This document shows, piece by piece, positions 40,200 to 61,971 of a DNA stretch of 64,000 nucleotides. The stretch lies in assembly GCF_044324785.1 (NCBI RefSeq), contig NZ_CP172127.1; one strand, given 5' to 3'. Made by a program: the position numbers and the translations under genes. This DNA comes from Escherichia coli (lineage in GTDB: Bacteria; Pseudomonadota; Gammaproteobacteria; Enterobacterales; Enterobacteriaceae). Every line of letters begins with the position of its first letter. Within the stretch, counting starts at the first letter, position 1. Below the pieces are notes generated by a model. It ran no database searches. It was given only the letters and a program-made list of their open reading frames with translations, and was not told where the DNA came from.

Positions 40200-41024
40200 A
40201 TGCAGCAGTTACAGAACATTATTGAAACCGCTTTTGAACGCCGTGCCGAGATCACGCCAGCCAATGCAGACACCGTTACCCGCGAAGCGGTAAATCAGGT
40301 GATCGCCCTGCTGGATTCCGGCGCACTGCGTGTGGCGGAAAAAATTGACGGTCAGTGGGTGACGCATCAGTGGTTGAAAAAGGCGGTGCTGCTCTCTTTC
40401 CGTATTAATGATAATCAGGTGATCGAAGGGGCAGAAAGCCGCTACTTCGATAAAGTGCCGATGAAATTCGCCAACTACGATGAAGCGCGTTTCCAGAAAG
40501 AAGGCTTCCGCGTTGTACCACCAGCGGCGGTACGTCAGGGTGCGTTCATTGCCCGTAACACCGTGCTGATGCCGTCTTACGTCAACATCGGCGCATATGT
40601 TGATGAAGGCACCATGGTTGATACCTGGGCGACCGTCGGTTCCTGTGCGCAGATTGGTAAAAACGTCCATCTTTCCGGTGGCGTAGGTATCGGCGGCGTG
40701 CTGGAGCCATTACAGGCGAACCCGACCATTATTGAAGATAACTGCTTCATTGGCGCGCGTTCTGAAGTGGTTGAAGGCGTAATTGTCGAAGAAGGTTCCG
40801 TCATTTCCATGGGCGTATACATCGGTCAGAGCACCCGTATTTACGACCGTGAAACCGGCGAAATCCACTACGGTCGCGTTCCGGCGGGGTCTGTGGTTGT
40901 TTCAGGTAATCTGCCGTCGAAAGATGGCAAATACAGTCTTTACTGTGCGGTTATCGTTAAGAAAGTTGACGCGAAAACTCGCGGCAAAGTCGGCATTAAC
41001 GAACTGCTGCGTACCATCGACTAA
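40200..41024 (+). CDS. dapD: Tetrahydrodipicolinate N-succinyltransferase
   Basis: 274-aa ORF recognised as DapD. Confidence 0.96.
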
Positions 41025-41076
41025 AAATCAGTACACGGGCAGCATGACGCTGCCCGATTTTTTGCAGGGATGGATG

Positions 41077-41889
41077 ATGATCACACGCAGGCGTTTTTTA
41101 CAGGCAGCCGCCGCGACGTTAGCTGCCGGATCAAGCCTCAGCTATATGCATTATTGGGAACCTGGCTGGCTTGAAATAACCCATCACAGCATCAGCTTTT
41201 TTAAAGACAAAGCCCTACCTTTTAAAATTCTTTTTCTGGCAGATCTCCATTACTCCCGCTTTGTTCCGCTTACCTTGTTTTCAGACGCCATTAATCATGG
41301 AGTGGCACAAAAGCCCGATTTGATTCTGCTAGGCGGCGATTACGTATTGTTTGATATGCCGCTGAATTTTTCAGCCTTCAGTGACGTACTCTCTCCCCTT
41401 GCCAAATGTGCGCCGACATTTGCCTGTTACGGCAACCACGATCGCCCCGTGAGAACGGAGAAAAATCACTTAATTGGCGAGGCGTTAAAGACGGCGGGGA
41501 TCACGGTGTTATTTAACGAAGCCACGCTTATCTCCACTCAGAAGCAGCAATTTGAACTGGTTGGCGCAGGTGATTTATGGGCCGGGCAATGTAATCCACC
41601 CGGCGTAAATGACGCGAGTCTGCCACGGCTGATGCTGGCGCATAATCCCGACAGTAAAGAACGCCTGCGCGAAGAAAAATGGGATCTAATGCTTTGCGGT
41701 CATACTCACGGCGGGCAGCTCCACGTGCCGTTAATAGGCGAACCTTTTGCGCCTGTTGCCGATAAACGCTACGTCGCCGGGTTAAATGCCTTTGGCGAGC
41801 GGCAAATTTACACCACCCGCGGCGTGGGAAATTTGCATGGCTTGCGTCTGAACTGCCGCCCGGAAGTGACGATGCTGGAACTGATTTAA
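41077..41889 (+). CDS. yaeI: Tat-signal metallophosphoesterase YaeI
   Basis: 270-aa protein with twin-arginine signal (TRRRFLQAAAATLAAG) and calcineurin-like GDY/GNHD motifs; start trimmed from the 368-aa ORF that runs back into dapD. Confidence 0.88.
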   Translation: MITRRRFLQAAAATLAAGSSLSYMHYWEPGWLEITHHSISFFKDKALPFKILFLADLHYSRFVPLTLFSDAINHGVAQKPDLILLGGDYVLFDMPLNFSAFSDVLSPLAKCAPTFACYGNHDRPVRTEKNHLIGEALKTAGITVLFNEATLISTQKQQFELVGAGDLWAGQCNPPGVNDASLPRLMLAHNPDSKERLREEKWDLMLCGHTHGGQLHVPLIGEPFAPVADKRYVAGLNAFGERQIYTTRGVGNLHGLRLNCRPEVTMLELI

Positions 41890-41903
41890 CTGGAGATTCA
41901 ATA

Positions 41904-42614
41904 ATGGATTATTTTCTCGGCGGCTATATGTTGCTACATTGCCTGCCCGTTGAGGGGCTTCATCCGCAACTTAAAGGTAAACCACTGCTAACGTGCAGTA
42001 CCTGTTTTAATGAAAGTCTGCTTTGTGCCTGGTCTTACGCGTGGTTAGGTTCCGATAAAGACTCTCCTTATGATGGCAATATGTCACTTTACGAACATCT
42101 GGAAGCCACTTTTTTGCTTACAGACGAAGACAGGGAACAGATCCGCATCCGGGCAAATGATTGGTTCAATGAGGATAAAGTTGGCTGGGAAAGTATATTC
42201 ATGGATAAATCGACCGCTATTGAATATAAACAAAGTTTCTTTCCCCATATCGAGAATTGCTACCTTCTTGCAATCTATATCAGAGAACCGAATGTACAAG
42301 AGTTCTCCCTTTATCCATCCCATGATGGTATTGCTGCAAGGCTTCTTCGCAGGCAGCCTGAACGAAATGAAATGGATGAAAAGTTATTAGGTTACGATAT
42401 TCTGGGTCTGGAAATCGGCGGGCAGTTCCATACATCTCACTGCCATCCATTGTATAACGAACTCCACCAGCGCTTCGGTCTCACCCTCAATCAACACGGA
42501 CTTTATAACGAAATCCCGGACTGGCAACCGGTCGTGGACTATATGAACGACGACGCCACGGGATGCGAACCCGTCCCCTGGGGTATCGCCACAATAAAGC
42601 AGGTAATTTTTTGA
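41904..42614 (+). CDS. Hypothetical protein, unrecognised family (accessory ORF between yaeI and yaeH)
   Basis: 711-nt ORF filling an otherwise intergenic gap; GGAG Shine-Dalgarno 8 nt upstream of ATG; starts 14 nt after yaeI stop, same strand; AT-richer than neighbours; no signal peptide or TM segment evident; 7 Cys incl. CSTC and HTSHCH motifs. Confidence 0.72.
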   Translation: MDYFLGGYMLLHCLPVEGLHPQLKGKPLLTCSTCFNESLLCAWSYAWLGSDKDSPYDGNMSLYEHLEATFLLTDEDREQIRIRANDWFNEDKVGWESIFMDKSTAIEYKQSFFPHIENCYLLAIYIREPNVQEFSLYPSHDGIAARLLRRQPERNEMDEKLLGYDILGLEIGGQFHTSHCHPLYNELHQRFGLTLNQHGLYNEIPDWQPVVDYMNDDATGCEPVPWGIATIKQVIF

Positions 42615-42733
42615 TTTTTACGCCATGATAGAAGTCTGGAAGAAAAAGGCTTTCTGCGATCACAGTCGAGCCGAGCGGGCCAGGCCAAATGCTAAAATAA
42701 GCACAATTTACTGACTCATTTTGAGGTAACGCT

Positions 42734-43120
42734 ATGTACGACAATCTGAAAAGTCTGGGTATTACCAATCCTGAAGAAATTGATCGTTACAGCCTCCGGC
42801 AGGAAGCCAACAACGATATTCTGAAAATCTATTTCCAGAAAGACAAAGGCGAGTTTTTTGCCAAGAGCGTGAAATTTAAATATCCGCGTCAGCGTAAAAC
42901 GGTCGTCGCCGATGGTGTGGGTCAGGGTTATAAAGAAGTGCAGGAGATTAGCCCTAATCTTCGCTATATCATTGATGAGTTAGATCAAATCTGCCAGCGT
43001 GACCGCAGCGAAGTTGATCTTAAGCGTAAGATCCTCGACGACTTACGTCACCTGGAGTCAGTAGTAACCAATAAGATCAGCGAGATTGAAGCCGATCTGG
43101 AAAAACTGACGCGTAAATAA
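42734..43120 (+). CDS. yaeH: UPF0325 protein YaeH
   Basis: 128-aa ORF recognised as YaeH; GAGG SD upstream. Confidence 0.92.
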
Positions 43121-43132
43121 TGCCATTCTGTG

Positions 43133-43164
43133 GGCCGGGTAAAGTCTCACCCGGCTGTAATTTT
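43133..43164 (+). terminator. Rho-independent terminator after yaeH
   Basis: GCCGGGTAAAGTCTCACCCGGC hairpin followed by TGTAATTTT. Confidence 0.6.
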
Positions 43165-43173
43165 GTCATCGAC

Positions 43174-44331
43174 CTACCGCTCTTCATCCAGTTGTAACGC
43201 CACATACAGCAGCAATCTGTCATCAAAATTGCCCAAATCAAGCCCGGTCAGTTCCGATATACGATTAAGCCGATACTCCAGAGTATTACGATGAATAAAC
43301 AACGCCTTTGACGTTGCCAGCGGTTGCACATTGTGGCGAAACCACGCCGCCAGCGTTCGCCGCAGCAAGCCGTTATTGTCCATCGCTTTCAGCCGCGCCA
43401 GCGGTCGCGCCAGTTCGTTGGCCTGCCAGTCGCCACGCAAACTGTCGAGTAACACAGGCAACATCAGATCCTGATAAAAATAGCAGCGACTTTCAGGCAT
43501 TCGCTGTTTACCCACCACCATCGTCGTTTTCGCCGTACGATAGGATCGGGCAATACTGCCCGGTCCGGTAAAATAGTTGCCCAGCGAAACGCGAAAACGC
43601 AGCTGGCCGTACTCTTTCATGCGGGTAATGAGTTGTTCAACTCGCTTACGATGATCTTCTGCATCCCAGCGCCCAAAAGAGTTCAACGCCGGTTTCAACA
43701 CCACCATTTCGGTCAGCGAGACAATCGCCACCAGATTATTACGCTCAGGCGTAGTCAGCGCGTTTTGCAGTTGCTGTAACTCCGCCATTGCGCTGTCCAC
43801 GCCAAGCTGACCGCTGTCGACCTCAACAATAGCCACCACTCGCGGTTGATTGAGATCGATCCCCAGCCGTTGCGCCCATTCAGTAAGTGCGGGGGTATTC
43901 TCCTCAGCCTGAATCAGGTTCATCACCAGTTCTTCCCGCAAACGGCTATCCTGCGCCAACAGGTGCATCAACCGCGACTGTTCCAGCATCATTTCAGCCG
44001 TCATGCAGACCAGTTCGCCATATTTACGCAGGTTCTCTGGTTCACCAGTCAGGCCAATTACGCCGACAATTTCACCTTCCAGCCGTAACGGTAGATTAAT
44101 CCCTTGCCGCACACCGTGCAGATGACGTGCCACCGCGTCATCGATATCCACTACTCGTCCCTGTGAAAGTACCAGCAATGCACCTTCGTGCAATTCACCA
44201 ATACGCTCACGATCGCCGCTGCCGATAATTCGCCCGCGGGCATCCATTACGTTGATATTGGTATCGATGATGCGCATGGTACGTGCCACGATATCCTGCG
44301 CCATTTTGGTATCAAGATGCCAGCCAGCCAT
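43174..44331 (-). CDS. cdaR: Carbohydrate diacid regulator (SdaR)
   Basis: 385-aa protein recognised as CdaR with C-terminal HTH; start at MAGWHLD inside the 391-aa ORF. Confidence 0.9.
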   Translation of the reverse strand: MAGWHLDTKMAQDIVARTMRIIDTNINVMDARGRIIGSGDRERIGELHEGALLVLSQGRVVDIDDAVARHLHGVRQGINLPLRLEGEIVGVIGLTGEPENLRKYGELVCMTAEMMLEQSRLMHLLAQDSRLREELVMNLIQAEENTPALTEWAQRLGIDLNQPRVVAIVEVDSGQLGVDSAMAELQQLQNALTTPERNNLVAIVSLTEMVVLKPALNSFGRWDAEDHRKRVEQLITRMKEYGQLRFRVSLGNYFTGPGSIARSYRTAKTTMVVGKQRMPESRCYFYQDLMLPVLLDSLRGDWQANELARPLARLKAMDNNGLLRRTLAAWFRHNVQPLATSKALFIHRNTLEYRLNRISELTGLDLGNFDDRLLLYVALQLDEER

Positions 44332-53192: not shown

Positions 53193-53226
53193 TGATTTTG
53201 CCTCGCCCACCGGGCGAGGCATTCGA

Positions 53227-55209
53227 TTAACGGCTCTGCTTTCTCAACAAATAGATAAAATACGGCGCGCCGATAAAGGTCGACAGCAGCCCCGCTGGGA
53301 TCTGGAATGGAAACAGCACCATCCGCCCACACCAGTCAGCGAACACCAGCAGTAAACCACCCACCAGCGCCGAAATTACGATGTGCGGCATCGTCCGTCG
53401 AAAGCCCATCATCCGCGCAATATGCGGTGCCATTAAACCAACAAAACTCAACGGTCCAATGGTCATTGTCGCGGTCGCCGTCAGGCAAGCCGCTAACAGC
53501 AGCAGCGCAATTCGCGTCGGCGTCAGCGCCATTCCCACGGCTCGTGCGGTATCACCTCCCAGCGGTAAAATGGTCAGCCAGCGGCGGCACAGCGGGGTAA
53601 TCGCCAGCAAAATCACCATCACAATTCCCGTGCGCCAGACCTGCGCATCGGTCGCGTTGTAGGTCGAACCGGAAATCCAGGTCAGAACTTGCGCCATTCG
53701 CGGGTCACCACTTGCCTGCAACATCATCAAAAGCATGGTGAACGCGGTACTTAACGCCATCCCCGCCAGTAACATGCGGTGTGGGGAAAATCCACCGCGT
53801 CCGGCGGCGATCATAATGATCAACAGCGTCACTGCCGCCCCGAGACTTCCCGCGGGTAACAGCCAGCCAAAGGCATTACCCGGCACCAGAAACAGCATTA
53901 ATACCACGCCAAACGCCGCGCCGGAGCTAATCCCCAGCACTTCCGGGCTTGCCATCGGGTTGCCGGTCAGCCGCTGAATAATACAGCCCGCCACCGCCAG
54001 CATGACGCCCGCAAACAGCGCCGCCATAATTCGCGGCCAGCGCCAGGGCATCAAATCCTCGAGCAACGCCCCGCTCGCCCACGTCCAGCCGTGCGCATCA
54101 CGACCAAACGACAGCGCCACCACCACAGCCATCAACAGCAGCACGCCGCCCGCGAGGGCAAACGCCAGCACATGTTGGCGTTCAGCAGCGACACGATCGT
54201 TCACCTTCATATCCGGCGCGCTAATGCTGCGTAAACGCGGCAGCAGCCACAGCAGCAGCGGCGCACCGAGGAGCGCAGTGACCGAACCGGTAGAAACTTC
54301 CATCCACACGCGAGTCAGCCAGAGGATGATTTGATCAGAAAGCCACAGAATTAACGCCCCAATCAGCGACGCCAGCATCAATCGTGGCAACAAACGCCGC
54401 GCCCCCAGCATTTTTGCCAGCAGCGGCGCGAACAACCCGATAAAGCCGATAATCCCCACTGCATTCACCAGCAGCGCACTGATGACTATCGCCAGCGACA
54501 GCGCCGCCAGACGCGCCAGCGACAAGGCCAGACCGAGATTGCGCGCCACGCCATCATCAAGCCCCATCAGGGTTAACGGGCGAAGTAGCAATAATGTCAG
54601 CATCACGCCGCCCAGCAGCTGCGGCCATAAACGCTCAACGCCGCCCCAGTCGGTTTGCGTCAGCGTTCCGGTGCTCCACAGGAACATGCTTTGTAGCTGG
54701 TCGTGATGGAAGATAACCAGTAACTGATTGATTGCTCCGCAATAAAGGCTCACCACCAGCCCCGCGAGGATCAGCGTTACCGGCGACAGCCGTTTCCCCC
54801 ACGCGACGCCAAAGACAATTAAGCCAACAACGCAAGCCCCTGCCAGCGCAGCAAACTGGCTCGCCATAGCACCTGGGATCGCCCAGAGCGTAGTGACGGT
54901 AATCCCCAGTTGCGCGCCTGTTGCAACGCCCAACGTCGTCGGTTCCGCCAGCGGGTTACGCAGCACTTGCTGAAACAGCACACCCACCAGCCCCAGGCCC
55001 GCGCCCACCAGCAGCGAAATCGCCAGACGCGGCAACAAGCTGTAGTGAAAAATCATCTGCTCGATGACATCGATATCCGGCGACCAGGCAGCCTGCGCCC
55101 ACTGGCTACGCGGCAGCGCTTGCGAAAAGTTCATCCAGGTGAGCGCCGCTGCGACAATCACCAGCAGCGCCAGCAATAACGCCGGGAAAAGCGCAATTCG
55201 TTTACTCAC
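53227..55209 (-). CDS. fhuB: Ferric hydroxamate ABC transporter permease
   Basis: 660-aa duplicated permease recognised as FhuB; overlaps fhuD stop by 4 nt. Confidence 0.95.
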   Translation of the reverse strand: MSKRIALFPALLLALLVIVAAALTWMNFSQALPRSQWAQAAWSPDIDVIEQMIFHYSLLPRLAISLLVGAGLGLVGVLFQQVLRNPLAEPTTLGVATGAQLGITVTTLWAIPGAMASQFAALAGACVVGLIVFGVAWGKRLSPVTLILAGLVVSLYCGAINQLLVIFHHDQLQSMFLWSTGTLTQTDWGGVERLWPQLLGGVMLTLLLLRPLTLMGLDDGVARNLGLALSLARLAALSLAIVISALLVNAVGIIGFIGLFAPLLAKMLGARRLLPRLMLASLIGALILWLSDQIILWLTRVWMEVSTGSVTALLGAPLLLWLLPRLRSISAPDMKVNDRVAAERQHVLAFALAGGVLLLMAVVVALSFGRDAHGWTWASGALLEDLMPWRWPRIMAALFAGVMLAVAGCIIQRLTGNPMASPEVLGISSGAAFGVVLMLFLVPGNAFGWLLPAGSLGAAVTLLIIMIAAGRGGFSPHRMLLAGMALSTAFTMLLMMLQASGDPRMAQVLTWISGSTYNATDAQVWRTGIVMVILLAITPLCRRWLTILPLGGDTARAVGMALTPTRIALLLLAACLTATATMTIGPLSFVGLMAPHIARMMGFRRTMPHIVISALVGGLLLVFADWCGRMVLFPFQIPAGLLSTFIGAPYFIYLLRKQSR

Positions 55210-56096
55210 GCTTTACCTCCGATGGCGTTATCCAGAATACGCACAAAGTGCATTGCCGAAAGCGTCGCGCCATAGAACCAGACCGCCGGAACGCGCTGAA
55301 AACGTCCTGCACGGACAAACGGCATGGCCTGCCACAGCGGGGTTGCCATTAGCGCATCCATGTCTTTGCTGTTGTCGTGATCAAAACAGAGCACATCAAC
55401 GTCTTTATACGCCGCCAGACGATCGATACTGACGGCGGTACTGCCCCAGAAGTTGGTTTCCCCTTGCCAGGCATTTGGGATGCCGTACTCATCAAGAATT
55501 TCCTGGAACAAGCTGTTTGGACCGAAGACCAGCATATGGCGCGGATCGATAAGCGTCGTCAGCAATAACGGGCGTGCACCACGCTTCACAAAGCGGGGTT
55601 TCATGCTGCGGATAAAGTCTTCATATTGCGCTAAATGCGTTTCTGCTGCGCTTTGCAGGTTAAGTAAATCTGCCATTTCCGTCAGTGATTTACGCGCCAT
55701 CACCAGCGGCTGTTTGCCGTCGCTGAAGTTAAATCCGCGCCCCGGCGCAATGCGTGCCAGCATTTCTGGTGAAGGGCCATATCCTGCCGACCAGACCATA
55801 AACGACGGTTTCATTTCGGTCAGCAGTTCAAGGTTAGGTTCTGTACGCAAACCAACGTCAATCACTGAGTCCGGCAATGGCGGTTCGCTGACCCACAGGC
55901 GATAGTTGATGGTATCCGCCACGCCGTAAGGCACGATGCCGAGCGCCAGCAGTAATTCCACCGGCAACCACTCCAGCGCCACAATACGATTGGGATCAAT
56001 AGCCGCCGCGTGGGCGGTATTCATCTGCCATAACAACGGAGAAAGCGCCATCGCCGTTAACAGTCGGCGGCGCGAAATAAGAGGTAAGCCGCTCAT
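55206..56096 (-). CDS. fhuD: Ferric hydroxamate periplasmic binding protein
   Basis: 296-aa protein with Tat-like signal (SRRRLLTAMA); recognised FhuD. Confidence 0.93.
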   Translation of the reverse strand: MSGLPLISRRRLLTAMALSPLLWQMNTAHAAAIDPNRIVALEWLPVELLLALGIVPYGVADTINYRLWVSEPPLPDSVIDVGLRTEPNLELLTEMKPSFMVWSAGYGPSPEMLARIAPGRGFNFSDGKQPLVMARKSLTEMADLLNLQSAAETHLAQYEDFIRSMKPRFVKRGARPLLLTTLIDPRHMLVFGPNSLFQEILDEYGIPNAWQGETNFWGSTAVSIDRLAAYKDVDVLCFDHDNSKDMDALMATPLWQAMPFVRAGRFQRVPAVWFYGATLSAMHFVRILDNAIGGKA

Positions 56097-56893
56097 CAAT
56101 AAACAAAACTCACAGGTGCAGCACCCGCCGGATGCGGCAGAATACCCATCGGGATGCCATAAATCATTTCGAGGGTTTCGCCGCGCATAATTTCCGCAGG
56201 CGTTCCCTGAGCAATCATTTCACCGCCGCGCAGGGCGACCAGATAATCACAGTAACGCGCAGCCATATTGATATCGTGCAGCACGGCAATGACCGTCAGG
56301 CCACGCTCCTGACTTAAACGATGCACCAGCGCCAGCACATCAACCTGGTGGGCGATATCCAGCGCCGAGGTCGGTTCGTCGAGCAACAGACAACGGCTAT
56401 CCTGCGCCACCAGCATGGCGATCCACGCCCGCTGACGTTCGCCGCCAGAGAGACTATCGACCAGCCGATGCGCCAGCGGTTTTAAGCCAACCAGCGAGAT
56501 AGCTTCCTCGACCTTTTCGCGATCTGCCGCACCAAAGCGCCCCAGCGCGCCATGCCACGGGTAACGACCAATCGCCACCAGTTCACGCACCGTCATCCCT
56601 TCTGCCGGAGGAAGCTGCTGCGGCAAATAAGCCACTTTGCGGGCAAACGCTTTGCTGCTCCAGCTTTCCAGCGGTTGGGCATCAAGAAGAATCTCCCCTT
56701 CCGACGGCGGCTGGTGACGACCAAGCATTTTGAGCAGAGTGGATTTACCAGAACCGTTGTGACCAATCAAACCAGTCACTTTCCCGGCAGGAAAGGTTAA
56801 CGACAGCGGATGCAAAAGCGTGCGCCCTGGCACACGAAAGGAGATATTACGCAGTGCAAAAGTGGTATCGGAATGATTCGTGTATTCCTGCAT
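56096..56893 (-). CDS. fhuC: Ferric hydroxamate ABC transporter ATPase
   Basis: 265-aa protein recognised (Walker A GHNGSGKST, LSGGERQR); start at MQEYTNHSD inside the longer ORF; 1-nt overlap with fhuD. Confidence 0.93.
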   Translation of the reverse strand: MQEYTNHSDTTFALRNISFRVPGRTLLHPLSLTFPAGKVTGLIGHNGSGKSTLLKMLGRHQPPSEGEILLDAQPLESWSSKAFARKVAYLPQQLPPAEGMTVRELVAIGRYPWHGALGRFGAADREKVEEAISLVGLKPLAHRLVDSLSGGERQRAWIAMLVAQDSRCLLLDEPTSALDIAHQVDVLALVHRLSQERGLTVIAVLHDINMAARYCDYLVALRGGEMIAQGTPAEIMRGETLEMIYGIPMGILPHPAGAAPVSFVY

Positions 56894-56943
56894 AACAGCC
56901 AACTTGTGAAGCGGGCACGGAAATCCGTGCCCCAAAGGAAAAA

Positions 56944-59133
56944 TTAGAAACGGAAGGTTGCGGTTGCAACGACCTGACGTTCTGCGCCCCAGAAGCAGCC
57001 ATAGGTCTGGAAGCAACTGGCAACATACTCACGATCGAGCAAATTGTTGACGTTCACAGCAAGGCTGGATCCCGCCATACCAAAGCGTGCCAGATCATAT
57101 TTTACAACAGCATCCATTACAGCTGCGCTACCCACTTTAAAAGTGTTCGCCGGATCACCATAGCTGGAACCAATAAAACGACCACCTGTTCCCAATGTTA
57201 AACCAGAAAGCGGCCCTTCATTGAAGGTATAATCCCCCCAGAGAGATGCCATATGCTCCGGTACTTGTTCTGGAGTTTTACCTTTGAGATTGGTGTCTTT
57301 GGTGTATTCCGCATCGGTGTAGGTATAAGAAGCCGTCAAGTTAATATTGGCATTTAACGCCGCTTTTGCTTCAAGTTCCACACCACGAGCGCGAATCTCA
57401 CCTGCCGGGACTTGCGCTAATGGGTTTGTTGGGTCTGCTGTCAGGTTATTTGTTTTCGTCAATTGATAGACTGCGCCCGTAACAACGACCGGCATATCAT
57501 TCGGAACATATTTTACGCCAGCTTCATACTGTTCACCTTTCGATGGCTTATAGGAAACGCGCGGGTTGCTCCACAGATCGAAAGCACTCGGTTCAAAGGA
57601 CTGGCTATAGCTAAAGTAAGGTGAAATACCATTATCGAATAAGTAATTTACACCACCGCGCCAGGTGAACTGATGATCATTGCGCTCAATATAACCTTCA
57701 GTCGGCGTATAAGAGTTTTCACGAACAGTGGTCGCTTGCTTAGACCAATCGTAGCGTCCCCCCAGAGTGAATACCCATTTATTCCATTCCGCCTGATCCT
57801 GAACATAAATACCTGTTTGTTTGCTTTCATTCATCTGGTATGGCTCTGCGCTACCAAATGCAAAGTATTCAGGATGGTATTTGTTATAAAGATCGATGGA
57901 TGGTGCAGATCCAAAGCTGGCATTGATATCATTGCGCATACGCATGAAGTCTACCCCTGTCAGCAAAGTATGCCCGACGTCACCTGTAGCAAACTTACTT
58001 TCAAGCTGGGTATCAACGCTAAAGTTTTGTAGACGCTCATTATCCACCACTGTCCCGCGGTTTAGGGTATGACCATCGCTGGCAATCCCTGTGCCATAAA
58101 CACTTTTCTGTGAGGTTTTCATTTCACTGAAACGCAGATTCTGACGCACGGTGAAGGTGTCATTAAAACCATGTTCAAAACTATATCCCACCATTTTCTG
58201 GTTACGGGAGTATGTATTATTCGATGCACCTTCATTGAAGTCAGTCGGTAGACGCTTACCATTAGGCAATGGCTCAACGGTCCCCTCTTTCGGCAACCAA
58301 CCGTAATAACCCGTTTCTGGTTCGTTCTGAAAATAGGACAGGAAAGTAAAATTGGTTTTGTCGTCTGGACGCCATGAGAATGATGGAGCAATGGTATAAC
58401 GCTGAGATTCAGAGTTTTTCTGCTGTTCGTTTGTTGAGCGTGCGAGGCCAGTCAAACGGTAGGAGAACTCACCGTTATCATCCAGCGCATCACTGAAATC
58501 GAATCCGGTCTGAAACAGATTATCCGTCCCCATTTTAAACTGAATTTCTTTCAGGGGTTCAGTTGTCGGACGCTTACTCACCATAGAAATAATCCCACCA
58601 GGATTACTTTTCCCATAGAGAACAGACGTCGGCCCGCGCATCAGTTCAACCCTCTCGAGCATGTAAGGATCAATCACAGCATCGTTATAAAAGTTGCCCT
58701 GAAGTTTTAGTCCATCAAGGTAATTATTTTGATTCAGACCAACAGATGAGAAACCACGAATGATAACAAAATCATATGTATTAGAAGCACCACGACTGCT
58801 AACCGTAACGCCAGGTGTATAACCTAATGCTTCTTTTACAGACTGAAATTGATGCATCTGCATCTCTTCATTTGTCACAACCGAAATAGACTGCGGCGTT
58901 TTTTCAATTGGTGTATCCGTTTTAGTCGCAGTAGCAGAGTGCTTCGCCGCAATAGTTGCAGCCGGTCCCCATGCGCTTTCTTGCGGCGCAGGTGCAGCGG
59001 TAACGGTGATAGTGTCTTCTTTCGGTTCAACCGCTGCCTGTGCATAAACAGACATGCCGCTAACCGCTGTGGCTACTACAACTGCGATTTTACGCAGTGA
59101 GTGTTTTGGCTGAGCAGTTTTGGAACGCGCCAT
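56944..59133 (-). CDS. fhuA: TonB-dependent ferrichrome outer-membrane receptor FhuA, divergent allele (729 aa)
   Basis: Signal peptide and TonB box (DTITVTA) plus C-terminal barrel end (ASCFQTYGCFWGAERQVVATATFRF) recognised; much of the intervening sequence differs from the K-12 protein as I recall it. Confidence 0.9.
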   Translation of the reverse strand: MARSKTAQPKHSLRKIAVVVATAVSGMSVYAQAAVEPKEDTITVTAAPAPQESAWGPAATIAAKHSATATKTDTPIEKTPQSISVVTNEEMQMHQFQSVKEALGYTPGVTVSSRGASNTYDFVIIRGFSSVGLNQNNYLDGLKLQGNFYNDAVIDPYMLERVELMRGPTSVLYGKSNPGGIISMVSKRPTTEPLKEIQFKMGTDNLFQTGFDFSDALDDNGEFSYRLTGLARSTNEQQKNSESQRYTIAPSFSWRPDDKTNFTFLSYFQNEPETGYYGWLPKEGTVEPLPNGKRLPTDFNEGASNNTYSRNQKMVGYSFEHGFNDTFTVRQNLRFSEMKTSQKSVYGTGIASDGHTLNRGTVVDNERLQNFSVDTQLESKFATGDVGHTLLTGVDFMRMRNDINASFGSAPSIDLYNKYHPEYFAFGSAEPYQMNESKQTGIYVQDQAEWNKWVFTLGGRYDWSKQATTVRENSYTPTEGYIERNDHQFTWRGGVNYLFDNGISPYFSYSQSFEPSAFDLWSNPRVSYKPSKGEQYEAGVKYVPNDMPVVVTGAVYQLTKTNNLTADPTNPLAQVPAGEIRARGVELEAKAALNANINLTASYTYTDAEYTKDTNLKGKTPEQVPEHMASLWGDYTFNEGPLSGLTLGTGGRFIGSSYGDPANTFKVGSAAVMDAVVKYDLARFGMAGSSLAVNVNNLLDREYVASCFQTYGCFWGAERQVVATATFRF

Positions 59134-59164
59134 TGGTATATCTCTGATGTAAAGTGAATGATAA

Positions 59165-59195
59165 CGTAAACGAGAATGATTATTATAAAGATAAG
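59165..59195 (-). promoter_or_regulatory. Fur box in fhuA promoter
   Basis: Minus strand reads TTATAATAATCATTCTCGTTTACGTTATCATTC about 30-60 nt upstream of fhuA ATG, matching GATAATGATAATCATTATC-type Fur operator. Confidence 0.55.
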
Positions 59196-59352
59196 ATAAT
59201 ATTCGAAACGCTGGCGGGTTCGCAAGCGGTACGCAATCTGAGCGTTCCTGAAGGGTTAATAAACAACCAGATGAAAAGAAAGGGTTAATACTTTGGGTGG
59301 GATGTTATTTTACCGGATGGCTACTCGCCATCCGGTATGTCACGCTTAGACG

Positions 59353-61878
59353 TTAATTACTACCAAACATATCCTTGATCCAACCAGCTACACCGTCGCT
59401 GTCTTTCTGCTCTTGCTGAGCAGGTTGCTGTTGCTGCGGCTGAGAAGACTGATCAAACGGATTGCCTGACGGTTGCTGCTGCATCTCACTCTGCTGGCAC
59501 AGCGATTGCGGATCGCTGGTCCAGACCGGCAAGACACGCATACCACCGCTGCAAACAAAGTTGCCGTCGTAGTCCACGCCCATATCTGCAATATCTTCTG
59601 GCGGAACAAGATTTAGCGGCGTTGGCGTCTGGTTAGCCAGATAACGCTGATAAATCGACATTGCCCCGCTGGCTCCATACAGTTTGGTCGGCTGGTTGTT
59701 ATCACGGCCGACCCAGGTGATGGTCACCGTGCTGCCGTCAATGCCCGCAAACCAGGTATCTACGTTGTTGTTGGTAGTCCCGGTTTTTCCCGCCAGATGC
59801 AGATTTGGATATTTCGCCCCAAGCTGACGCCCCGTACCACGTTGTACCACCTGCTGCATGGTCCATAGTGTCAGATACGCCGCCTGCGCCGGAACAGCGC
59901 GTTCTGCCTGCGGGAAGCTCTGATACAGCACCTTGCCATCTTCCGCGATTACCGAACGCAGCGCAGAAAGCGGAGCACGGTTACCGCCGCTGGCGATGGT
60001 CTGGAATGCCTGCGCCACTTCGATTGGCGTTAAGTTCAACGCCCCCAGCAGCATCGCCGGAACCGGATGCAGCTGATCTTTCGGTACGCCCAGTTTAATC
60101 CAGGTCTCCGTAACCGCAGGCAGCCCCAGCGCCATCCCCAGATTTACCGTCGGCACGTTCATCGAACGGGTCAACGCATCCACCAGCATCACTCTGCCGC
60201 TTTCGCTATAACGACGGTCATCGTTCTGCGGTGACCAGACCTGGCCATTTGGCTGACGCAGCGCGATTGGCGCATCCGCAATCCACGTATTCAGACGATA
60301 GATTTTCGGCTGGCTTAAAGCCGTCAGATAAGTCGCTGGTTTTGCAAGGGAACCAATCGAACGACGCGCCTGCATCGCACGGTTGTAGCCCGCAAACTGC
60401 GGCTCAGAACCACCGACCATCGCACGAACTTCACCGCTAAAGCGGTCAACAACCACAATCGCGGTTTCAAGATCGCTCAACTTACGCTGTTTCTTCAGTG
60501 CCGGAATGCCTTCCACGGCGGCTTTTTCTGCCGCGTCCTGGGCCACCGAGTCAAAGGTAGTGAAGATCTTCACGCCGGAGAGATCTTTTACCTTATCGCC
60601 TAATTTCGCCTGCAGCTCCTGACGCACCAGTTGCATAAAGGCTGGCTGAGGAGAGATCACCCCACCGCGCGGCTGAACACCCAGCGGACGTGCACTCAAC
60701 ATATCATAGAGTTCTTGATCAATAATCTGTTGCTGTTGCAGCAAACGTAGCACCAGGTTACGTCGCTCCAGCGCCAGTTTCGGGTTACGCCACGGGTTGT
60801 AGATGGACGCCCCTTTAACCATACCCACCAACAGCGCCTGCTGATCGAGGCTCAATTCTTCTACCGGACGACCAAAGTAATACAAGCTCGCCAGCGGGAA
60901 GCCGCGGATTTCGTTGTCGCCGCTCTGACCGAGATACACCTCGTTCATATACAGCTCAAGAATACGGTCTTTGCTGTAACGCGCGTCCATGATCAGCGCC
61001 ATGTAAGCTTCGTTCGCTTTACGCCAGTAAGAGCGCTCGCTGGAGAGGAACAGGTTTTTCACCAGCTGTTGCGTCAGCGTACTCGCACCCTGCACCGTGC
61101 GTCCGGCGGTCAGGTTTGCCAGCACCGCACGCCCAATTGAGTAGAGGCTGATCCCATCATGTTCGTAGAAATGACGGTCTTCTGTCGCCAGCAAAGTATC
61201 CACCAGCAAATCCGGGAAACCACTGCGCGGCACAAACAGACGCTGCTCACCGTTTGGCGAAGAGATCATGGTGATCAGACGCGGATCAAGACGGAAGAAA
61301 CCGAACTGACGGTTGTTCTCCATATTGACGATCGTCGCCAGATGATCGCCATCAAAGGTCAGACGTGCACGCACCTGCCCTTCTTTACTGTCCGGGAAAT
61401 CAAACGGACGGCGGATCATCTCAATGCTGTTGGCCTGCACGGTAAATTCGCCGGGACGGGTCATTTTCGACACCTGACGATACTGGGTCGCCTCCAGCAG
61501 CTTCACCATCTCGTTCTTGCTGATGGTCATGTCTGGCTCAAGGTTGACCATCCGGCCATAAACTGCCGCGGGCAGTTGCCAGACCTTACCATCAATACGG
61601 CTGCGAATTTTTTGATCGAGATAAACGCCGTAAATGGCGATCAGCACGGCAAAAACGATAGCCAGTTTTAGCAGCAGCCATAGCCAGCCGCGTTTGCCAC
61701 GAGGCTTACGCCCTTTGCCTTTGCCCTTACCTTTGCGCGGCATCGGTTCTTCATCCTCATAGTCATCATAATCGTCGTAATCATCGTCATCTTCGTAACG
61801 ACGACGGCTTACCTTTTGTTTGACCGGACGCGTCGGTTTCCCTTTGCGTCCAATTGGCTCGCGGTCATTCCCGGCCAT
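59353..61878 (-). CDS. mrcB: Penicillin-binding protein 1B
   Basis: Recognised MrcB (acidic [15 protein letters not shown] and KGKGKGKG N-terminal repeats, TM anchor, transglycosylase and transpeptidase domains); start at MAGNDREP. Confidence 0.95.
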
Positions 61879-61971
61879 GCTTTTTCTCCGCAATATTCAG
61901 GCGCAAAAGCCCGATTTTCTGTTCTTCTGTTGCAAGACAGAAGAAGATATCTCTCAAATTTACTTTGATCT

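Follow-up and report, generated by a model that had tools for sequence, protein, structure and literature searches.

The window (the whole stretch of E. coli DNA analysed here, 64,000 nt) carries on its minus strand an intact fhuA reading frame, lying between mrcB and fhuC as the first gene of a fhuACDB operon (Table 1). Its product is the same protein as RefSeq WP_001545231.1, and strains 200164 and ST38 have a FhuA with exactly this amino acid sequence. The preliminary description, made from the sequence alone, had seen here a strongly divergent and shortened allele in an otherwise conserved operon, and both parts hold: K-12 FhuA has 747 aa against 729 here, and a global protein alignment finds 559 of 722 residues identical (77.4%, not the near-identity that would have spoken against divergence), while the locus is otherwise about 98% K-12-like. 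Relative to K-12, 17 aa are missing from L4, and 2 and 6 aa in and after L5; 5 aa are added in L6, and single residues at two places in L7.

The protein matches the NCBIfam FhuA equivalog NF007465 with 1409 bits (cutoff 803) over profile positions 1-726 of 726. It falls below the cutoffs for FoxA (592 bits; cutoff 1300) and FhuE (92 bits; cutoff 666), which speaks against another TonB-dependent receptor at the fhuA position. In Pfam, residues 76-181 match Plug (E 6e-25), and TonB_dep_Rec_b-barrel is matched by residues 254-698 (E 4e-66). Solved FhuA chains match it full-length at E=0, with 77% identity across the whole mature protein.

Table 1. Features of the fhuA locus, in window coordinates.
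Feature	Coordinates	Strand	Remarks
Recent intraspecies recombination tract	56940..59386	-	haplotype common to window strain and E. coli 200164
fhuA coding sequence, E3-class allele	56944..59133	-	intact ORF, 729 aa
fhuC, fhuD, fhuB (downstream operon genes)	53227..56893	-	96-98% identical to K-12; not replaced
mrcB-fhuA intergenic region with fhuA promoter	59134..59352	-	97.9% identical to K-12 over 390 bp
Codons 1-63, E. coli-typical	58945..59133	-	protein identical to K-12; signal peptide, and TonB box at 59002-59016
Class-defining divergent block, codons 64 to 709/710	57004..58944	-	~70% DNA identity to K-12
Last ~20 codons and stop	56944..57003	-	DNA identical to K-12; 3′ class junction just upstream
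L3, residues 276-306	58216..58308	-	30/31 residues as in K-12; ferrichrome ligands Y244 and W246 (mature numbering) kept
L4 stub, residues 351-355 (ASDGH)	58069..58083	-	17-aa deletion relative to K-12
L5, residues 415-430	57844..57891	-	38% identical to K-12, 2 aa shorter; 6-aa deletion just after
L6, residues 471-479	57697..57723	-	29% identical to K-12; 5-aa insertion spans L6 end (Wang's Indel 5)
L7, residues 515-530	57544..57591	-	21% identity to K-12; longer by 2 aa (Wang's Indel 6)
L8, residues 567-573	57415..57435	-	K-12 DPEGSFF to DPTNPLA (F557L, F558A); same as Salmonella S2

The allele has in common with K-12 FhuA (class E1; PDB 1BY3, 2FCP, 8A8C, 8B14) its locus, operon and promoter, the plug and 22-strand barrel family, most of the residues listed for the ferrichrome pocket, the L11 disulfide, and loops L3, L10 and L11 (for L10 and L11, 14 of 16 and 18 of 19 residues are identical; L3 and L10 align without gaps). 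Residues 1-63 and the C-terminal 20 are identical, including the TonB box (D7-T8-I9-T10-V11), as had been supposed for the signal peptide, TonB box and extreme C-terminus. From 59267 to 59118, sliding 100-bp windows are 100% identical to K-12, the intergenic differences adjoining mrcB; given this identity in the promoter region, regulation of fhuA is presumably the same as in K-12.

Nine of the eleven positions on our list of ferrichrome-pocket residues are kept (R81, G99, F115, Y116, Y244, W246, Y313, F391, F693), a list that reportedly goes back to work by Ferguson and by Locher in 1998 (plug apices, L3, beta7, beta9, L11). The other two are changed, Q100L and Y315T, and both changes are also found in Salmonella S2. 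We take R81, G99, Q100, Y313, Y315, F391 and F693 to be pocket positions. For Y244, W246, F115 and Y116, this role is corroborated in the literature.

The plug has 29 substitutions relative to K-12 (residues 53-193), and the surface loops L4-L8 are built unlike those of K-12. The L4 deletion corresponds to K-12 mature residues P321-K337, taking Y325 and C329 with it and leaving 5 residues where K-12 has 22; as K-12 C318 is also replaced, by Ala, the L4 disulfide is lost. Loops L5, L6, L7 and L8 are only 21-38% identical. Loop limits were guided by AlphaFold2 strand boundaries, solely within the segment with pLDDT of 60-84 (residues ~300-640); the model as such (34-sequence alignment; mean pLDDT 48.7, pTM 0.49) was rejected for structural claims and for fold search.

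At the DNA level the divergence is sharply bounded. In 500-bp tiles the median identity to K-12 is 98.2% (128 tiles), but in the four tiles over 57001-59000 it drops to 65-77%, with abrupt edges. Base-by-base comparison puts the 5′ junction between 58963 and 58944, at codon 64, and the 3′ junction after 57004-57007, at codon 709/710. Within the block, 67.5% of fourfold-degenerate sites differ from K-12, against 9.5% in mrcB, fhuC and fhuD together; pS is 0.77, against 0.046 in codons 1-63 and 0.07-0.11 in the flanks. This drop in identity, far beyond chance, is the strong evidence for a divergent allele. Codons 1-63 differ from K-12 at 0.048 of fourfold sites, and from Salmonella S2 at 0.256.

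The gene is also AT-richer than its flanks, as the preliminary description had thought: its G+C content is 46.2% (GC3 42%), against 56.6% in fhuC, 55.1% in mrcB and 52.2% in the whole window. The 1,941-bp block has 45.0% G+C, less than any other stretch of equal length in the window (the dgt region comes second, at 46.5%), and its GC3 of 0.417 is the lowest among 85 homologues. As a sign of foreignness, however, low G+C is weak by itself, since fhuA of K-12 (51.2%) is also AT-richer than its own flanks, and dgt is about 98% K-12-like.

The allele corresponds to a published class. Wang, Chen, Hu, Zhu, White and Koster (2018; Infect Immun 86:e00573-18; preprint 10.1101/320069) described a FhuA cluster E3 of E. 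coli, which is without the L4 (Indel 3) and L5 (Indel 4) insertions of E1, S1 and E2, carries insertions in L6 (Indel 5) and L7 (Indel 6), and groups with Salmonella S2; the insertions typical of E4, in L3 (Indel 1) and L10 (Indel 2), are absent from it. In the window FhuA the L4 and L5 insertions are absent, the L6 and L7 insertions present, and the E4-type L3 and L10 insertions absent. By these described features, rather than by the strain lists of that study, the allele is assigned to E3 and appears no different in kind from it. We put at roughly 85% the probability that the gene is a functional fhuA of this natural class, encoding a TonB-dependent ferrichrome transporter; its competence for transport is suggested by the conserved sequence features.

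The E3 block is found in 562 of 5,426 complete E. coli genomes (10.4%), in single copy and always on the chromosome. Its carriers belong to several unrelated lineages, and among them are the commensal strain HS, WCHEC020032 (ST410) and an isolate with the label ST38. In all carriers examined base by base the junctions are the same (the window, ST38, 200164, HS, ST410-020032, D10 and L003). Each third of the block (5′, middle, 3′) is present at an identity of at least 95% in 562 genomes, and no E1/E3 mosaics were found among the 5,426 complete genomes. In these genomes, then, the block behaves as a cassette. Divergence within the class is 1.6%, not far below the 2-3% diversity of the flanking genes, but these 36 nucleotide changes produce just 4 amino acid changes, so that strong purifying selection acts inside the class. 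The subtype of HS and ST410 (WP_000124383.1) differs from the window protein by 4 aa; an allelic swap has been documented in ST410, and the allele there is of the same class as that of the window (WP_000124383.1 in both HS and 020032). A recent transfer is visible as a tract in which the window strain and 200164 have 5 mismatches in 2,446 bp, while the flanks just outside differ by about 3.4%.

These observations suggest how the class is inherited. The 1.94-kb core (codons 64-709/710), at about 70% identity, is too diverged from E1 DNA for recombination with it, and for that reason is inherited as an indivisible cassette. It passes from one E. coli lineage to another by homologous recombination in the ends of the gene and in the flanks, which are conserved. 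Its maintenance at about 10% beside the other classes is likely, to judge from this pattern, to be due to frequency-dependent (balancing) selection by phages and bacteriocins that target FhuA. There is a clear likeness to the mosaic outer-membrane protein genes (OmpA, OmpC, OmpF, LamB, FhuA; Chen et al., 2022; PMC12175518, 2025), in that a phage-receptor gene exists in a few discrete types, which cross lineages and are incongruent with the species tree, as E3 is. What that model emphasises, however, is local recombination in hypervariable regions that lie apart, whereas in E3 the whole core is co-inherited.

As for relatives, S. Typhimurium FhuA (S2, 729 aa) is 94.8% identical to the window protein without indels, and eight Salmonella proteins of 729 aa are 94.5-94.8% identical, likewise without indels. 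L3, L8 and L11 of S2 are identical to those of the window FhuA, and L4-L7 nearly so. The FhuA proteins of Citrobacter sp., Superficieibacter, Lelliottia and Kluyvera are 89-93% identical. The DNA tells a different story: against S2 the block is just ~80% identical, with saturated synonymous sites (pS 0.81), GC3 is 0.57 in S2 and 0.42 in the E3 block, and the N-terminal 63 codons are species-specific. E3 and S2 are therefore not recent copies of one another. Against all relatives, pS in the block is 0.75-0.82; as NG86 values above 0.75 might reflect composition, the comparison was rechecked with fourfold-site differences (0.61-0.68 in the block, 0.45-0.48 in the flanks) and transversions. Between E3 and S2, fourfold differences are 0.672 against 0.448 in the flanks, and transversions 0.366 against 0.257. 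After this recheck the block is still more diverged than the flanks, roughly 1.3-1.8-fold.

A scan of 100,044 species representatives (one genome per species, by exact peptide patterns; Salmonella was missed, and recovered through a protein cluster) found no donor, the best non-Escherichia block being that of Citrobacter sp. Res13 at 80.2% DNA identity. Candidate donors have a GC3 of 0.48-0.78, all above that of the E3 block. Given synonymous saturation against every relative found, none of them can be singled out as a recent donor, and the class is old: its likeness to S2 is confined to the protein (95%) and does not extend to synonymous sites. The preliminary description had proposed import of a foreign allele by recombination with breakpoints near the gene ends. 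Replacement stands, as do the breakpoints (codons 64 and 709/710 for the class, 59386..56940 for the recent tract); a recent or strain-specific origin is not supported, in view of the presence of the allele in 10.4% of complete E. coli genomes, the identical junctions of the carriers examined, and the lack of a donor above about 80% among the species returned by the scan.

A more far-reaching, tentative reading, to which we give a little less than an even chance, is that the split between E1 and E3, and between S1 and S2, dates very far back and is a receptor dimorphism maintained by selection, instead of having arisen through recent exchange between genera. As a non-recombining cassette, the E3 core would have kept its protein within 5% of S2 while its synonymous sites became saturated and drifted toward A+T. 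This drift might mean that the core came from an unsampled low-GC enterobacterial lineage, or that a non-recombining minority cassette escapes GC-biased gene conversion and codon selection. Wang et al. (2018) read the class as a recent acquisition; the common junctions, the frequency, the lack of mosaics, the saturation and the AT shift argue against this, and if the dimorphism is indeed old, their interpretation needs revision.

One alternative is that a two-class polymorphism predates the Escherichia-Salmonella split, that each genus inherited both classes, and that recombination within species has homogenised the gene ends only, in which case E3 would not be foreign at all. This is somewhat less likely than not. 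Both classes occur at the same locus in both species, with codons 1-63 species-specific and the core class-specific; fourfold transversions between E1 and S1 (0.279, against 0.253 in the flanks) are near co-divergence; for S2 versus Citrobacter sp. and Superficieibacter the values are 0.29-0.30, with 0.27-0.28 in the flanks; and records labelled Lelliottia nimipressuralis and Trabulsiella odontotermitis have alleles from two different classes. Yet the divergence between E3 and S2 exceeds the species background by both fourfold measures, so that simple vertical co-inheritance misfits E3 unless an extra AT-biased acceleration is invoked, and the alleles of E. whittamii and Escherichia sp. E1V33 are E1-like. 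All these distances are near saturation and discriminate poorly.

Recent import from Salmonella enterica S2, or from another named enterobacterial genus, is improbable. It would account for a protein closer to those of other genera than to that of K-12 (77%), and for a block AT-richer than its surroundings. But the block DNA is no more than 80.2% identical to any locus returned from the 100,044 representatives; its excess of fourfold differences over the flanks is measured in the same genomes; its GC3 lies under that of every candidate donor; and 562 E. coli genomes carry it with common junctions and 1.6% internal diversity. For the sampled genera, recent import is largely refuted.

It is very improbable that the gene encodes a different TonB-dependent receptor (FoxA-like or FhuE-like) or is a decaying pseudogene. 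The protein is 18 aa shorter than K-12 FhuA, lacks the L4 disulfide and is altered at two pocket residues, but the frame is intact and full-length, the equivalog scores and the identity to solved FhuA point to FhuA, few of the substitutions within the class reach the protein, and ferrichrome competes at the S2 homologue. Rapid divergence of the resident gene in situ, driven by phages through positive selection and without recombination, can practically be dismissed: fhuA has been reported to be under positive selection in E. coli (Chen, 2006; Petersen, 2007), and the surface loops have changed most, but the synonymous-site pattern, with its abrupt edges, refutes it, plug and strands also differ by 17-28%, dN/dS against relatives of the class is very low (dN 0.029 with saturated dS), and closer protein relatives occur in other genera than in Escherichia.

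A ligand and phage profile different from that of K-12 is plausible for E3 FhuA, because L4-L8 are remodelled and the 95%-identical S2 protein differs in microcin specificity. S2 is the best functional proxy: it has L133 and T348 in common with the window FhuA, binds ferrichrome, and takes up microcin Y but not microcin J25. At the FhuA of S. Typhimurium, ferrichrome is a competitor of microcin Y. This FhuA is unable to import MccJ25, while E. coli fhuA gives hypersensitivity to it; of the two Salmonella FhuA clades, one corresponds to MccJ25 and the other to MccY susceptibility. By analogy, E3 carriers are predicted to resist microcin J25 and to be sensitive to microcin Y.

For the phages, 23 of 27 hydrogen bonds of T5 pb5 are to FhuA EL4, EL5 and EL8; T1 depends on L4, and T5, phi80 and SO1-like phages on L8, which is reported to be important, as is F557. 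To go by its loop anatomy, E3 FhuA should be a poor receptor for T1 and phi80 (L4/L8-dependent) and for T5 pb5, and would still serve as a receptor for other phages. T5 tolerates the loss of any single loop but L8, so T5 resistance of E3 carriers is not certain. The one T5 test on S. Typhimurium, in which the phage did not adsorb (Degroux preprint), was discarded as evidence. O-antigen, capsule or exclusion are confounding factors in it; Shigella and EPEC strains also failed to adsorb, though their contact residues are unchanged; and the stated FhuA identities of 96-100% do not fit an S2 allele. FhuA classes are not treated in a Salmonella Tequintavirus host-range preprint or in the phage Cit2 paper.

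The E3 class is thus already published (Wang et al., 2018) and annotated, and is not a discovery. The additions made here are modest: the exact junctions, the cassette-like inheritance, and evidence that the likeness to S2 is ancient rather than recent, together with the frequency of E3 in 5,426 complete genomes, the absence of mosaics, the synonymous saturation and the AT shift. T1, T5, phi80 and many newly isolated coliphages use FhuA as their receptor, and it is also through FhuA that colicin M, albomycin and the microcins J25 and Y enter the cell. The FhuA class of a strain is useful to know for the prediction of phage host range, the design of cocktails and the use of lasso-peptide microcins: were K-12 FhuA assumed, about one in ten sequenced E. 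coli would be mispredicted, HS, the ST38-labelled isolate and WCHEC020032 among them.

The window is a K-12-like chromosome segment running from hrpB to the rrnH region, with a median identity to K-12 of 98.2% over 500-bp tiles; two places only fall well below this median, the body of fhuA and a patch near yaeI. The preliminary description of a divergent, shorter fhuA in conserved surroundings is therefore real, and its coordinates hold: the encoded protein has 729 aa, against 747 in K-12 FhuA (b0150), and a global alignment of the two gives 559 identities in 722 aligned positions (77.4%), not near-identity. Residues 1-63, the last 20 residues and the TonB box are the same in both, as had been claimed, and fhuA is AT-richer than its neighbors (46.2% G+C and 42% GC3, vs. 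56.6% G+C in fhuC and 55.1% in mrcB).

Sliding identity to K-12 is 100% from the promoter-proximal intergenic sequence into the beginning of fhuA, drops to 60-78% within the gene, and returns to at least 96% shortly before the stop codon. In base-by-base alignment, class-specific differences begin at 58944-58942 (codon 64) and end at 57007-57004 (codons 709/710), which locates the recombination breakpoints proposed near the gene ends. The G+C content of the block between them is the minimum among all windows of its length in the 64 kb; dgt, otherwise ordinary, goes as low as 46.5%.

Features of the window discussed here
Feature	Position	Strand	Description
fhuA ORF	56944-59133	minus	intact, 729 aa
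Divergent block of fhuA	57004-58944	minus	1,941 bp, 45.0% G+C; base-by-base alignment
yaeI-like gene	~41078-41889	plus	~81% identity to K-12 yaeI; adjoins the 236-aa ORF
Extra 236-aa ORF	41904-42614	plus	between yaeI and yaeH; G+C ~44%; absent from K-12

Fast evolution of fhuA in situ is ruled out by the contrast between block and flanks. By Nei-Gojobori proportions, the block differs from K-12 with pS 0.77 and pN 0.168, vs. 0.046 and 0 for codons 1-63 and pS 0.07-0.11 for mrcB, fhuC, and fhuD; at fourfold sites, 67.5% differ in the block and 9.5% in the flanks. Synonymous divergence confined in this way requires recombination.

The second divergent patch (41000-43500) contains the extra ORF; dapD and cdaR, neighbors of the yaeI-like gene, are ordinary. 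None of 5,426 complete E. coli genomes covers 41000-43200 to 80% or more (the best gives 68% coverage at 90.4%), and low-stringency blastn found no match to the ORF among them, the yaeH side of the query alone matching. Its product falls in no family of Pfam or NCBIfam; 291 contigs carry exactly this protein, with the source name “hypothetical protein [Escherichia coli].” Besides fhuA, the window has in this patch another site of allelic replacement or insertion. At the mrcB 3′ end (59435, in the Gln-rich tail), a 9-bp indel that sets the window apart from each of six E. coli strains compared makes the MrcB C-terminal tail three residues shorter (841 aa from the ATG start, vs. 844 aa in K-12; CDS 2,535 bp). 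The fhuB-hemL spacer (53193-53226) is 34 bp, vs. 157 bp in K-12, and like it the hrpB-mrcB spacer (~61894-61971) is about 100-120 bp shorter than that of K-12; the latter is long in HS, ST410, and K-12, and short in 200164, ST38, and D10. These length differences probably reflect REP-type elements, present or absent.

The divergent fhuA is an already described, common, and annotated allelic class. Wang et al. (2018, preprint 10.1101/320069) distinguished four clusters of E. coli FhuA, E1-E4, and two of Salmonella FhuA, S1 and S2; by alignment and loop comparison the window allele fits the published description of E3 exactly, K-12 being E1. For “mosaic evolution,” a concept this group later applied to genes of outer-membrane proteins, fhuA served as the founding example. 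Megablast with the whole gene finds the allele at ≥95% identity in 562 of the 5,426 complete genomes, with the annotation “ferrichrome porin FhuA”; the remainder match at ~77%. Strains 200164 and ST38 carry the identical protein under accession WP_001545231.1, which is recorded on at least 1,000 contigs. A study of ST410 reported that the carbapenem-resistant B4/H24RxC clone swapped its fhuA through recombination; the allele lost, WP_000124383.1, is the E3 subtype present in E. coli HS and ST410 strain WCHEC020032. The suggestion of foreign import thus holds for recombination at the gene ends, but not for a recent or unusual event. In E. coli Br_112_kylling (NZ_CP182371.1, ~4999430-5000946), the E3 match is split in two, spans just 69% of the gene, and has no more specific annotation than “TonB-dependent siderophore receptor”; this copy is probably disrupted or truncated. 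The 90%-identity protein cluster of the window FhuA also contains 265-aa FhuC proteins (Salmonella, Klebsiella), which looks like a clustering artefact rather than biology, perhaps arising through fused fhuA-fhuC gene calls.

Both junctions are common to all E3 carriers compared (the window, ST38, 200164, HS, ST410-020032, D10, and L003, a divergent “E. coli” GTDB representative). The 5′ third, middle, and 3′ third of the block, matched separately, are each found at ≥95% identity in 562 of the 5,426 genomes, indicating that the core is passed on whole; no E1/E3 intragenic mosaics were seen among these genomes, as would follow if homologous exchange within it needs more than 70% identity. The cassette does move between E. 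coli backgrounds: the window and strain 200164 differ by five mismatches across 59386-56940 (0.2%), and by ~3.4% directly outside on either side, in mrcB (upstream) and fhuC (downstream). E3 has two subtypes, ~99.7% and ~98.1-98.4% identical to the window. The 36 nucleotide but just four amino-acid differences from HS fhuA point to strong purifying selection, and these sequence comparisons indicate a residence in E. coli roughly comparable in age to the diversity within the species. The strict cassette inheritance and exact junctions go beyond the existing literature, as far as surveyed.

The origin of E3 was approached by scanning bacterial genomes, one for each species. The nearest non-Escherichia proteins are from Citrobacter sp. 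Res13 (93%) and Superficieibacter (92%), followed by Lelliottia nimipressuralis CCUG 25894 (91%) and Kluyvera intermedia (89%); those of E. whittamii and Escherichia sp. E1V33 reach 73-74%. The 90% cluster has a Salmonella enterica FhuA as its representative; the window protein aligns to S. Typhimurium FhuA without indels at 94.8% identity. At the DNA level the block shares ~80% identity with Salmonella, and no fetched locus exceeds 80.2%, values equal to or below those of the flanking genes; against every relative pS is 0.75-0.82, with dN merely 0.03-0.07. Since the block's GC3 (~0.415) is the lowest of 85 homologues (others 0.48-0.78), fourfold sites were rechecked. E3 and S2 differ at 0.672 of these (transversions 0.366), vs. 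0.448 (0.257) in the flanks; for E1 and Salmonella S1 the values are 0.557 (0.279) and 0.467 (0.253). Divergence between S2 and Citrobacter sp. or Superficieibacter is on par with their flanks, as is that between K-12 E1 and E. whittamii, and E1 looks vertically inherited within Escherichia. In E. coli and Salmonella alike, codons 1-63 go with the species and the core with the class.

From these sequence data it is a fair conclusion that no sampled taxon, Salmonella included, is a recent donor of E3, and that the E3-S2 protein likeness is ancient and kept by purifying selection. Wang et al. (2018) inferred “recent acquisition” from short protein branches, with which the synonymous sites disagree. 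Either E3 would then have been imported long ago from an unsampled lineage of lower GC, or it would belong to a dimorphism predating the genera, as one of its arms, with an AT shift that has no explanation. Pairs of records under one species name carry different FhuA classes in Lelliottia nimipressuralis (91% vs. 65% to the window protein) and Trabulsiella odontotermitis (84% vs. 66%), so the dimorphism apparently exists in other genera too. The E3/S2-like blocks of Lelliottia and Kluyvera have GC3 ~0.49-0.50, well under the local G+C of 0.56-0.57, which hints at a class whose composition may be “foreign” to several of its hosts. As far as surveyed, the synonymous-site and GC3 evidence for an old class without a sampled donor is also new to the literature.

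By every sequence test the gene product is FhuA: it covers the full profile of the NCBIfam FhuA equivalog (1409 bits, cutoff 803), reaches no other NCBIfam receptor model's own cutoff, has both the Pfam Plug and barrel domains, and matches solved FhuA structures with E=0. Identity to K-12 is 79% in the plug, 58-83% in the strands, and 97, 88, and 95% in surface loops L3, L10, and L11 (disulfide kept). The ferrichrome-pocket residues, which we take per Ferguson/Locher 1998 to be R81, G99, Q100, F115, Y116, Y244, W246, Y313, Y315, F391, and F693, are kept at nine positions; the changes, Q100L and Y315T, are both also found in S2. Published papers confirm Y244/W246 and F115/Y116 as pocket residues, and ferrichrome binding is reported to need L3 and L11. 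As ferrichrome and microcin Y compete for FhuA in S. Typhimurium, E3 FhuA is likely transport-competent.

The other loops are much altered. L4 has lost 17 residues and a disulfide, identity to K-12 is 38% in L5, 29% in L6, 21% in L7, and 29% in L8, and DPEGSFF in L8 of K-12 is replaced by DPTNPLA. Phage T5 pb5 makes 23 of 27 hydrogen bonds to EL4, EL5, and EL8; T1 relies on L4, and T5, phi80, and SO1-like phages on L8, with F557 singled out. Microcin J25 cannot be imported via S. Typhimurium FhuA, while E. coli fhuA renders the same cells hypersensitive, and the two FhuA clades of Salmonella correspond to MccJ25-susceptible and MccY-susceptible isolates. On these published contacts and microcin data, the altered sensitivity profile first suggested for this allele is plausibly right. 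E3 may be a poor receptor for T1, phi80, and T5, a prediction made with less confidence because T5 tolerates most single-loop FhuA deletions; by analogy with Salmonella, we predict with moderate confidence that E3 carriers would be refractory to MccJ25 and susceptible to MccY.
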